From positions 1-33,608 of the forward strand of contig JBJMMA010000183.1 of the NCBI GenBank assembly GCA_045805065.1: 33,608 nucleotides of DNA. The letters are read 5' to 3'. The position numbers and the translations under genes were made by a program. Below are positions 19,002 to 21,922 of the stretch, in pieces. The notes under the pieces were generated by a model, which worked only from the letters and a program-made list of their open reading frames with translations, did not search any database and was not told where the DNA came from. Position 1 is the first letter of the stretch. Each line of letters opens with the position of its first letter. The stretch comes from Bdellovibrionia bacterium (GTDB taxonomy: Bacteria; Bdellovibrionota; UBA1018).

Positions 19002-19898
19002 TTAAAGACTTATGACGCGCAACTCAAGCCCAAAAATCCTAAATAGATTCAGCCGGCTGGCTTCCAAAACTTGCTCTGGCTTCAGGCCTTCCTGCTCTTT
19101 GAGTTTGCAGATGGCCTCAGCCACAGTCCAAAGGCTTCGAGGATCGTTCGTGCCCTCTTCAAAGCCATGATATTCATCCGGAATTTGATCAGGGCTATCG
19201 GACTCAACCACGATACTTTCCAAAGGCAAGCGTTTGAGCGCCCGCTTGAGGGTCTCATATCCCTTTTTTGCGGCCACTCCCCCAATCGATGGAGTCAATC
19301 CGAGCCGCTCGTATTCCCGGGCAATCTCATAACTTCCGGAGAAGGCATGAACCAGCCCCCCGCGAGGCCAAGGACCGTGCTGAGCCAGGAGTGCAAGGGT
19401 TTGCGGGTGTGCCTTAACGGTGTGAAGCACCAGGGGCAGATTAGCCTTCTTAGCGATCTCAAGCTGTCTTACAAAGACTTCAGTCTGATACTCCTCGGTA
19501 CCCGGATCCGTCTTTGGGCCAAGATCGATTCCAAGCTCTCCAATGGCAATGGCTTTGGATTGGCCATTCGCCAGAGTTCTGGAAAGGTACTCAGGCAAAA
19601 TCTCAAGCGCATGATCGACCTGTTTTTTAAGCTCGGCGCCCGTGACACCCATGCGACCCGCAACAAACCAGGGATGAATCCCAAAGCACGGGTAAACAAC
19701 GCCAGGATAACGCTCCGCCAACTCAAGCTGAAGATCCCAATCCGTTGGATGGATGCCTCCTTGGATAAAGGCACCAATCTCGCGCGTTCGTGCCGCAGCA
19801 AACATGGCATCGAGCCGCTTAAAGAGCCGATGATCCGCTAAATGGCAGTGCGCATCTATAAAACGGGCTGGATTGTCGACTCTTTTTGTTTCTGACAT
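19002..19898 (-). CDS. tatD: TatD family metal-dependent hydrolase/nuclease
   Basis: [38 protein letters not shown]. Confidence 0.9.
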
Positions 19899-21922
19899 TT
19901 GAATTGGTACTGCGTTTGGAATTCCGGCTGAAACTGTGGATGCAGCCTGATTCTCTTTTCAAACTCCTGAGCCTGCTCTTGCGAAAGGTCTGCCGGAATC
20001 TTTACCCCGCTTCTCTCCCAACGCTCAAGCCAGCTTGAGTCTAAAAGCTCATATTGGAAATCAGGAGAAAGTGCCGCCTTCGGCGTTAAAGCAATCGTTG
20101 TCTCGCCCTTAGGTCCCGTACCTACTCCGCGTGCGACGACAAAGCCCGCAGCCAAAAGAGCGGATCTCACTGCGGTGGATGCCGAGTAAGTAAAGAGAGC
20201 CGTTTCCTGATCGCCCACGTAGGCCAGGATCTTCTCAAACGTCTCACGCGTCCAAAGCGGCGAATCCACTTTGTAAGAGAACGGATCAAAATAGATGAGA
20301 TCAGGCTTTGGGGCCAGCTTCATCTTTTCCATGAAATCGCCTTCAAAAAGCGTCCACTCAATGGGATGCTTCTCGGATTTCCAGTTACCGTTCTGAAGCA
20401 ACGCGCGCGGCGCCGCATGCCAGAGACTTGAGAAAAGCGCATGATGCTTGAGCGCCAGGCGAAATGCATCGAGATCAATCTCAAAGCTCACCAGATGCAT
20501 TTTCTTCAGGCCATCCGTCTCGCAAGCGCGGATCGTCTCAAGCGCATTTGTTCCAGCGCCTAAGCCCACATCCCAAACCACGAGATCTTTTTGCCCGAGA
20601 CGCTCAGTGATCTGAGACTGAGCCACATAAAGTCGGCGTGCTTCGTCCGATGGCTCACTCACCGAGTGCATGATCTCGCCTGACGTGCTGTCCTTCACAC
20701 TCCAAAAGCCTTGAGCCGATTGAACGAGCTCAAACTTACCCAGAGTGCGCGCGCGACCTCCGATGCGATCGCGCGGAGGCTTTGCATATTTCTTTGGATT
20801 TTCCTGGTCGTCGCGCACAAGCTCTTCGCGCTTCTCGCGATAATACTGCAGGAAGGTATCGTTCAAGATCGCTTCACGCATCTGACTCATCAGCTGATGA
20901 TAAAAATGCAGATTGTGATGACCAATCAGATGCCAGCCAAGAAGCTCCTTGGTCTTGACCAGATGATGGATGTAGCCGCGCGAGTAATTCTTGCAAGTAT
21001 CGCAATCGCAGCCCGGAACGAGCGCATCGTCTGAGAACTTATAAACGCTTCGTCTCAGGTCAAATCTTCCCTTGAACGAGAACGTCACGCCTTGCTGAGC
21101 AAGGGCGGTTGGAAGAATGCAATCAAACATGTCCACGCCGCAATGAACGGCTTCCAAAAGATCGATCGGCGTTCCAACGCCCATCAGATAGCGCGGAAGA
21201 TTCTTGGGCAAAAGATCCGCAGTGAGCGCGCAGAAATGCTCACGCTCATGTTTGGTCTCACCCACGGCAAGACCACCGATGGCAAAGCCATCAAACGGAA
21301 GCTGTGTGAGAAAAGCCGCGCTCTCTTTTCTGAGATCCTCAAAGCATGCGCCTTGAACGATTCCAAACATGGATTGTGGCGAATCACCGCGCGCGGCAAG
21401 ACTGCGCTTGGCCCAGCGATGCGTGAGATGCATGGCGGCTTCAGCTTCAGCGCGCTCGGAAGTGGTTGGAATGCACTGATCGAGCACCATCATGATGTCG
21501 CTTCCGATCGCCTTTTGCATGCCGATGCTTCGCTCTGGGCTTAGAAGGATTTTGGTGCCATCGACATAGCTTTTAAAACTTGCGCCTTCTTCTGTCATCT
21601 TGCGCGCATGAGGAAGCGAGAAGACCTGAAAGCCCCCCGAGTCCGTCAGCACGGAGCGATCCCACTTCATGAAGTTGTGGATTCCGCCAAAGCGCTCGAA
21701 CACTTCAGCACCGGGTCTCAAGAGCAGATGATAAGTGTTGGCGAGCAGGACTTGCGCGCCAGTCTGCTTCAAAGTTTCGCGAGTCTGCGAGCGAACCGTA
21801 GCCTGCGTTCCCACGGGCATGAAGATCGGGGTCTTCACCTCGTTATGAAGGGTACGAAAAGTTGCCGCGCGTGCGCGCGATCCGGTGGCTATGGCCTCAA
21901 GTTGAAATTTTAATCGACTCAT
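19856..21922 (-). CDS. tgt: tRNA-guanine transglycosylase fused to a C-terminal MnmC/MnmD-type SAM methyltransferase
   Basis: TGT part: [49 protein letters not shown], CxCxxC...HN. MTase part: [49 protein letters not shown] 21922 is preferred as the start. Confidence 0.9.

Follow-up and report, generated by a model that had tools for sequence, protein, structure and literature searches.

To our knowledge, all known bacterial tRNA 7-deazaguanines arise from one tRNA-guanine transglycosylase (TGT; Tgt) and end in queuosine-type bases. The closest described architecture to the one treated here is that of the TGT/MnmC2 fusions, which are among four 'other' MnmC2 fusion types given by Jaroch et al. 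('Alternate routes to mnm5s2U synthesis in Gram-positive bacteria', bioRxiv 10.1101/2023.12.21.572861). In the text searched of that preprint, the fusion is listed without a function or paralogue status, and preQ1 (7-aminomethyl-7-deazaguanine) occurs zero times. The closest chemical precedent comes from phage, where DpdA and DpdM make 2'-deoxy-7-(methylamino)methyl-7-deazaguanine (mdPreQ1) in DNA (Cui et al. 2023, PMC10516641, as excerpted). Here we analyse an open reading frame (ORF) in a 33,608-nucleotide stretch of DNA from a Bdellovibrionia bacterium (GenBank assembly GCA_045805065.1, contig JBJMMA010000183.1, positions 1 to 33,608), hereafter the window. The ORF has the same architecture as the fusions of Jaroch et al., COG0343/PF01702 joined to an MnmC2 domain, and belongs to that class. 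The architecture is thus already on record; our addition is that each half proves to be an extra, divergent paralogue and that the two move together.

Tentatively, we read the ORF as a self-contained, horizontally mobile two-step RNA-modification enzyme, built from non-housekeeping Tgt and MnmC2 paralogues, which would insert preQ1 and then N-methylate it in parallel to the queuosine pathway.

One reading frame, two domains

The fusion ORF runs uninterrupted on the minus strand from an ATG at 21922 to a stop codon at 19856-19858. An alternative in-frame GTG lies upstream at 21958 and would add 12 residues to give 700; we favour the ATG because the N-termini of homologues align at MSRL. The features are listed below, with Tgt2 standing for the TGT paralogue clade to which the N-terminal half belongs.

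19856 to 21922, minus strand: whole fusion ORF, 688 amino acids plus stop, with the start supported by homologue N-termini
20822 to 21877, minus strand: TGT domain (residues 16-367), which falls in the Tgt2 paralogue clade
21122 to 21124, minus strand: codon of Asp267, equivalent to the nucleophile Asp280 of Zymomonas mobilis TGT by alignment and column counts
20738 to 20803, minus strand: basic, disordered interdomain linker, residues 374-395
20003 to 20737, minus strand: predicted S-adenosylmethionine (SAM)-dependent N-methyltransferase domain of DUF752/MnmC2 fold, residues 396-640, from family matches, model and fold match
20087 to 20443, minus strand: PF05430 core of the methyltransferase domain
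20285 to 20287, minus strand: codon of the catalytic residue of motif IV ('DPF'), Asp546, which corresponds to Asp178 of E. coli MnmC and Asp193 of the Aquifex enzyme
19859 to 20002, minus strand: helical C-terminal tail past the modelled methyltransferase core

Pfam detects only two families in the ORF, PF01702 (TGT) at residues 16-367 with an E-value of 2.9e-142, and PF05430 (Methyltransf_30) at residues 494-612 with an E-value of 3.5e-14 and 53.2 bits against a gathering threshold of 22. The TGT half scores over the cut-off of the NCBIfam Tgt equivalog model TIGR00430 (447.7 versus 306.75 bits), and the methyltransferase half falls below that of the MnmC2 equivalog-domain model NF033855 (92.4 versus 136 bits). 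When aligned to solved structures, the TGT half matches Z. mobilis TGT (E 4e-105) and the methyltransferase half matches Aquifex aeolicus MnmC2, 3VYW (E 8.8e-9). Modelled alone, the methyltransferase domain reaches a mean predicted local distance difference test score (pLDDT) of 94.9 and a predicted template modelling score (pTM) of 0.92, and its best Foldseek match is again 3VYW (E 3.9e-14), followed by 2QY6, 3AWI and 3PS9, with E. coli MnmC among the best.

An AlphaFold model of the full fusion, computed with 82 homologues, gave a mean pLDDT of 89.3 and a pTM of 0.58, with both domains confident and the linker disordered (residues 380-389 have pLDDT <50). The linker has a net charge of +5 in the window protein; across the fused homologues it is 17-26 residues long and net positive in 81 of 82. 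At the other end of the methyltransferase, the conserved residues W631, S638 and Q663 lie just upstream of or inside the C-terminal tail, while the final ~25 amino acids are variable. A third domain in the longest ORFs, of up to 1029 amino acids, was considered and discarded, as their extra length is stop-to-stop read-through.

An earlier note on this DNA had described a complete TGT joined within one ORF, through a basic linker, to a methyltransferase of MnmC2/MnmD type; for the TGT it named the two catalytic aspartates, a Zn site and pocket residues that lie in LDQC and GLAVGE. The joining of the two enzymes is borne out by the Pfam, NCBIfam, structural and motif evidence, the TGT residues are confirmed by the Z. 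mobilis alignment and the column counts given below, and the basic character of the linker extends to nearly all homologues.

Two divergent paralogues

The genome from which the window comes (4.22 Mb, 94% complete) contains a second, standalone TGT at C101, which scores higher against the Pfam model than the fusion does (527.9 versus 476.8 bits). We surveyed 59 genomes, comprising 46 fusion carriers, 3 genomes with only unfused relatives and 10 controls; 27 of the carriers belong to the window's phylum, and the other 19, reached through the loci, lie outside it, so that at least five phyla are covered. All 59 have a TGT. A standalone, higher-scoring TGT accompanies the fusion in 45 of the 46 carriers, the exception being a 2.8-Mb metagenome-assembled genome (MAG), and a second canonical tgt, for which the earlier note had suggested a check, is thus nearly universal among them. 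A phmmer search with the TGT half of the window protein gives a bimodal score distribution, with 560-875 bits for 89 ORFs (76 fused, 13 unfused), which we call Tgt2, and 297-371 bits for 27 others. In a maximum-likelihood tree of 72 rows, for which 32 of the 76 fused rows were subsampled and all other rows kept, the branch between Tgt2 and every canonical Tgt measures 1.23 changes per column and has a Shimodaira-Hasegawa-like approximate likelihood ratio test (SH-aLRT) support of 100, and within Tgt2 the branches are short and the taxa mixed. The TGT half is therefore an extra, divergent paralogue and not the housekeeping orthologue. No publication on a Tgt paralogue clade of this type was found in our literature search.

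The catalytic apparatus is intact. D94, the general acid/base, and D267, the nucleophile, align with D102 and D280 of Z. mobilis TGT, and the nucleophile column is Asp in all 76 fused, 13 unfused and 21 canonical rows. D94, D148, C150, Q190, G217, L218, V220, E222, M247 and D267 are invariant in 82 fused proteins and in the 76 fused and 13 unfused rows, as are the Zn ligands C305, C307, C310 and H336. Judged from the alignment, the Tgt2 pocket is of the preQ1 type, being identical to that of Z. mobilis at GLAVGE. 'DQC' was set aside as a special pocket feature, since the canonical Tgt of the same genome has DQC too.

This pocket also bears on the order of events. TGT enzymes accept varied 7-substituted 7-deazaguanines, and one may ask whether the methyltransferase acts first, on free preQ1 or another free base, with Tgt2 inserting the base already modified. 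The standing of Tgt2 as a separate clade would accommodate such a change of substrate, and E. coli TGT has been described as promiscuous (excerpt of PMC13416341). We regard this reversed order as very improbable, as C150 and V220 (Z. mobilis C158 and V233), which restrict how large a substituent the pocket admits, are unchanged, the basic linker suggests contact with RNA, and the DUF752 members characterised so far act on tRNA and not on free bases, according to the excerpted text of Kitamura 2012 (PMC3527978).

What sets Tgt2 apart lies around the nucleophile and beyond it. Asp267 is followed by PTALAQQG in the window protein and by PTRxxRNG in canonical enzymes. The position of Z. mobilis Arg286 is R in 21/21 canonical rows and Q, A, K or S (50, 12, 8 and 4 rows) in the fused proteins, with A273 in the window protein; that of Arg289 is likewise R in 21/21 canonical rows and Q, K or H (65, 5 and 4 rows) in the fused ones, with Q276 in the window protein. 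Conversely, the fused rows have acquired an Arg at the 290-equivalent (55 of 76) and at residue 291 of the window protein, the 304-equivalent (76/76 fused versus 1/21 canonical rows). Other clade-specific residues are I100, Q149, S153-T154, K323 and W330. The canonical set is small, and Z. mobilis shares A232 and H332 with Tgt2, while only the differences listed here also hold against Z. mobilis. Arg286 and Arg289, on the helix that follows the nucleophile, reportedly touch the RNA near U35 (attributed to Xie et al. 2003), a contact for which our literature search gave no printed support. Arg286 does lie on helix alpha-B, beside the pockets for ribose-34 and phosphate-35 (PMC5395182).

Loss of two arginines that every canonical row retains would fit a Tgt2 target other than tRNA position 34, be it another tRNA position, another RNA, DNA or protein, with the methyltransferase following there. 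TGT-family enzymes provide precedents on DNA (DpdA; Cui et al. 2023, PMC10516641) and on protein (Cap10; bioRxiv 10.1101/2025.04.06.647259), both from excerpted text, and the patchy, mobile distribution described below resembles that of accessory genes. Yet Tgt2 passes the Tgt equivalog model, shares ~48% identity with canonical Tgt and has retained both the Zn subdomain and the residues of the dimer interface. Furthermore, the fusion has no conserved gene neighbourhood, no neighbour cluster being common to more than 7 of 81 loci, and no conserved defence-type or phage neighbours were seen across these 81 loci. We hence consider a target away from position 34 unlikely.

Two further TGT variants came up in the survey. 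A third standalone TGT paralogue of the window's phylum (family f22, loci L094-L099, in genomes G128, G009, G360, G190, G034 and G074) forms its own clade with an SH-aLRT of 100; it has 'MSDC' versus 'MFDC' beside the nucleophile Asp and a Lys at the Arg286 position, and the Zn cysteines are present in 3 of the 6. A deep unfused member of the Tgt2 family, L141 (G254:C103), has 'DWF' in the base pocket versus D-x-C, which includes the Cys158 equivalent, in all others.

The methyltransferase half likewise retains its motifs. In DUF752 enzymes the catalytic features are the (GX)GXGXN motif I, a motif II Glu, a motif IV DXF with the catalytic Asp, and a motif VI aromatic residue (Kitamura 2012, PMC3527978, excerpt). 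The corresponding residues G453, G455 and N459 (GxGxGxN), E481, D546, F548 and Y579 are invariant in the fused domains, and Asp546 is found in 82/82 fused proteins and 71/71 domains. To judge from these residues, both active sites of the fusion look functional. Divergence appears after the catalytic Asp: motif IV is D-P-F, with Pro in 52 of 71 fused domains, where canonical MnmC2 has DGF or DAF, and the 'P..NP' that follows is mostly gone (P550 in 6/71, N553 in 10/71 and P554 in 2/71, compared with 7/7, 7/7 and 6/7 at the same positions in canonical MnmC2). This remodelled loop does not, in our view, demonstrate a new substrate: in Aquifex MnmC2 the Asn adjoining DXFXP binds the adenine of AdoMet (SAM) (Kitamura 2012, PMC3527978, excerpt), and standalone relatives vary there too.

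In a tree of 52 methyltransferase domains, the fused domains form a clade with an SH-aLRT of 100, far from canonical MnmC2; the clade consists of 31 fused domains and one standalone copy from G190. Its sister is a group of standalone proteins, termed S2, that includes the C106 gene of the window's genome, the only other PF05430 gene there. Another PF05430 gene is present in 28 of the 46 carriers, and in 11 of these 28 it is a full-length, MnmC-size ORF (641-777 amino acids, PF05430 104-138 bits); all 7 of the MnmC-size ORFs scanned score 192-240 bits against NF033855, over its cut-off of 136, and carry an MnmC1 oxidase domain. The methyltransferase half is thus divergent and not a canonical MnmC2.

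The standalone copy in the fused clade, L131 (G190:C1, ~1236 kb), is a 283-amino-acid methyltransferase that sits ~5.4 kb downstream of the G190 fusion gene (G190:C1:1228957-1230975) and appears to have arisen locally from the fused half by duplication or fission.

Spread, neighbours and pathway context

In a collection of 5.8 billion proteins, the 120 best matches to the window protein are all 659-730 amino acids long and 57-97% identical to it, and 119 of them contain both Pfam domains. A scan of one genome per species returned at least 599 pattern matches, of which at least 591 were confirmed as relatives. The suspicion that the fusion might be an assembly artefact absent from other genomes, raised in the earlier note, can be dismissed, for it recurs in hundreds of them. 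The 80 loci kept come from Bdellovibrionota/Oligoflexia, Verrucomicrobiota (Opitutaceae and Chthoniobacteraceae), two Leptospira species and Riflebacteria, and include single Acidobacteriota and Betaproteobacteria MAGs.

Within these groups the fusion is sporadic. Among the 150 matches listed for the window's phylum, with two candidates scored per genome, we counted from the table ~100 of 401 genomes with a match into both halves and ~116 of 401 with a Tgt2-level best hit. Of 151 Verrucomicrobiota sampled, 3 have the fusion, ~45 an MnmC-size gene instead and 99 no PF05430. In the order of genome G405, the fusion is found in 3 of 121 genomes and an MnmC-size gene in 1, the rest having at most weak PF05430 matches; ~113 of the 121 are without any PF05430. 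In one Leptospira genus, 7 of 22 species carry the fusion. Displacement of MnmC by the fusion in Verrucomicrobia was considered and is not supported, as most relatives are without any PF05430. This patchy spread is the pattern of an accessory, transferable gene and not of a filler for a lost housekeeping enzyme, and the phylogenetically mixed distribution points to horizontal transfer. Both trees share an odd grouping, with two separate Verrucomicrobia groups, and Riflebacteria and Leptospira nested among Bdellovibrionota. The presence of the same grouping in the TGT and the methyltransferase trees indicates that the halves have been inherited and transferred as one unit.

In the window, a TatD-family gene (PF01026; 19002-19898, minus strand) starts with an ATG 43 nucleotides inside the 3' end of the fusion ORF and is followed by a ThiF-family gene (PF00899; 18071-18988, minus strand); the two are probably co-transcribed with the fusion. 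They were considered as conserved partners of it and rejected, because they are not conserved at other loci. Upstream and divergent from the fusion gene lies a 265-amino-acid ORF with an N-terminal hydrophobic stretch and no Pfam match (22078-22875, plus strand), and at 23844-26042 on the minus strand is a 732-amino-acid radical SAM protein of Radical_SAM_N + DUF3362 type (YgiQ-like) with a long basic C-terminal tail. A search of the window and 8 loci gave 0 Rfam matches at the gathering threshold, and thus no preQ1 or other riboswitch.

The fusion coexists with an ordinary queuosine pathway. QueA is present in 58 of the 59 surveyed genomes and 45 of the 46 carriers, and QueF in 53 and 43, respectively; queA often adjoins canonical tgt and never adjoins the fusion. 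The window's own genome has queA and queF besides its canonical tgt. Of the later queuosine genes whose presence the earlier note had raised, queA thus accompanies the fusion, while queG (TIGR00276) and queH (PF02677) were not found in the window's genome, where, at 94% completeness, they may be unassembled. The tRNA set of this genome, 44 ordinary tRNAs, is not unusual; tRNA-Lys(UUU) was not found among them and may likewise be unassembled. The idea of a queuosine bypass, put forward in the earlier note, does not survive these data, given canonical tgt and queA each in 45 of 46 carriers and tgt, queA and queF in the genome itself. Instead, the fusion runs beside the normal Tgt/QueA pathway as a parallel module.

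Candidate reactions and comparison with known systems

The reading that we rank first, while holding it with less than even confidence, is N-methylation of inserted preQ1. The Tgt2 domain would exchange guanine for preQ1, most likely at tRNA G34, perhaps with an RNA preference differing from that of the housekeeping Tgt. The tethered methyltransferase would then transfer a methyl group from SAM to the nitrogen of the exocyclic aminomethyl group that the inserted preQ1 carries, and the product, 7-(methylaminomethyl)-7-deazaguanosine, would be withheld from QueA together with its tRNA. We infer the inserted base, the RNA target, the methyl acceptor and the coupling of the two steps from several lines of argument. 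The carriers already hold Tgt, many of them also MnmC/MnmD-like enzymes, and both active sites of the fusion are strongly constrained, which makes plain redundancy unlikely. A G34 tRNA cannot be a U34 tRNA, so a short, conserved tether would be kinetically useful only if both domains act on one nucleotide. If a nucleotide must be shared, the aminomethyl group of inserted preQ1 is the one chemically sensible target, as preQ1 is the other wobble base with an aminomethyl group. N-methyl-preQ1 in tRNA is more plausible than redundancy would allow, given that each half is an extra, divergent paralogue.

The main rival, ranked just below it and nearly as likely, is that two independent wobble enzymes simply share one polypeptide: the methyltransferase would do the MnmC2/MnmD job of converting 5-aminomethyl-(2-thio)uridine, nm5(s2)U34, into its methylated form mnm5(s2)U34, and Tgt2 would act as another transglycosylase for G34, one that may favour different tRNAs or conditions. 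The fusion would then serve co-expression only, and the tether would bring no kinetic benefit. Several observations favour this explanation or weigh against N-methylation of inserted preQ1. The methyltransferase has the MnmC2 fold, with 3VYW and E. coli MnmC as its structural neighbours, and all DUF752 catalytic motifs are present. MnmG scores over its cut-off in 58 of the 59 genomes, which therefore have the pathway to the classical substrate of MnmC2. Whether another mnmC-, mnmD- or mnmM-type gene accompanies the fusion, which the earlier note had left open, receives a divided answer: beyond the 28 carriers with another PF05430 gene, the fusion is the sole PF05430 gene in 18 of the 46, of which 3 have an MnmM-type gene and 15 do not. 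In those 15 no other candidate methylase was found among PF05430 and MnmM genes, and the fused domain could simply be the cell's MnmC2.

The relatives of each half tell the same way. On the methyltransferase side, the domain has 187 relatives at E <= 1e-30 in a 50%-identity library, and the best 150 of these comprise 16 full fusions, 19 fragments with a TGT piece and 115 without one; the fused domain thus descends, by sequence kinship, from a broad standalone family that plausibly methylates nm5(s2)U. The nearest standalone relatives, one of which is the sole other PF05430 gene (C106) of the window's genome, occur without Tgt2: among genomes whose Tgt2 is exclusively unfused, 7 of 10 have the S2 enzyme, but so do 7 of 25 Tgt2-negative genomes. 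The same counts leave a tie between unfused Tgt2 and standalone S2 unsupported. On the transglycosylase side, 4 of the 13 'unfused' Tgt2 rows are contig-end truncations, but genuine unfused genes exist: eight are nested within the fused groups, and seven deeper family members, likewise unfused, show these signatures too. Of the 10 genomes whose Tgt2 is solely unfused, 3 have no close relative of the fused methyltransferase, which implies a role for Tgt2 without that methyltransferase.

The fusion itself is a less telling argument than it might seem, as MnmC2 is also fused to the unrelated partners YhdJ and MqnD (Jaroch et al., bioRxiv 10.1101/2023.12.21.572861, text searched). AlphaFold predicts no fixed interface between the two domains, as reflected in the pTM of 0.58 for the full model. 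N-methyl-preQ1 was found in no tRNA paper, our literature search yielding only the phage-DNA paper and two chemistry papers, and the methyl acceptor of the methyltransferase half is deduced indirectly.

Against the two-enzyme explanation stands the double redundancy that it needs, with a canonical Tgt in 45 of 46 carriers and a full-length MnmC in 11 of 46, of which all 7 of the ORFs scanned pass NF033855. Nor does the fusion make up for a lost MnmC in the order of G405, where ~113 of 121 genomes are without PF05430 and 3 have the fusion. Each half sits on its own long, well-supported branch, and it is hard to see what the conserved short basic tether would be for, were the two substrates separate tRNAs. 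On balance, N-methylation of inserted preQ1 is the best single reading. With somewhat more reserve still, we propose that a mobile Tgt2-methyltransferase module in Bdellovibrionota, some Leptospira, Verrucomicrobiota and Riflebacteria makes N-methyl-preQ1, a nucleoside not yet described in tRNA, on RNA targets that Tgt and QueA leave.

A second transglycosylase clade that is conserved, spreads horizontally and is tied to an aminomethyl N-methyltransferase offers a concrete pointer towards a new wobble modification, or at any rate towards a second specificity of Tgt. Should N-methyl-preQ1 be the product, Tgt2 would define a second bacterial transglycosylase specificity; should the two enzymes act independently, the fusion would account for mnm5 formation acquired by lineages without MnmC.

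Set beside the known systems, the TGT half shares with bacterial Tgt (Z. mobilis, E. coli; TIGR00430) the fold, the catalytic Asp pair, the Zn site (Z. mobilis C318/C320/C323/H349), the dimer-interface residues and the preQ1 pocket, that is, Z. mobilis D156, C158, Q203, G230, L231, V233, E235 and M260. Unlike bacterial Tgt, Tgt2 stands in a separate clade, has Arg286 and Arg289 replaced and Arg gained at the 290 and 304 equivalents, is additional to a canonical tgt, is unlinked to queA and carries a C-terminal methyltransferase. With MnmC2/DUF752 enzymes (Aquifex aeolicus MnmC2, E. coli MnmC N-terminal domain) the fused domain shares the class I N-methyltransferase fold and motifs I, II, IV and VI. 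It differs from them in failing NF033855, in forming its own clade, in its DPF motif IV with 'P..NP' mostly lost, and in having a TGT as its partner rather than the MnmC1 oxidase.

The phage DpdA/DpdM system is the more distant by descent and the closer by chemistry. Tgt2 is a close paralogue of Tgt, while DpdA is only distantly related to TGT and acts on DNA; DpdM belongs to the DUF3109/YkgJ-like metal enzymes and has a CxxxCxxCC motif (Cui et al. 2023, PMC10516641, excerpt), whereas the fusion ORF has PF05430 and no DUF3109. As DpdM is unrelated to the fused methyltransferase, the phage system offers only a chemical precedent and no transfer of function by homology, which is a further point against N-methylation of inserted preQ1. 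If that reading is true, the chemistry would nonetheless be the same in both systems, with insertion of preQ1 by a TGT-family enzyme followed by N-methylation of the aminomethyl group, and phage mdPreQ1 shows by analogy that a methyl-preQ1 product is chemically natural.

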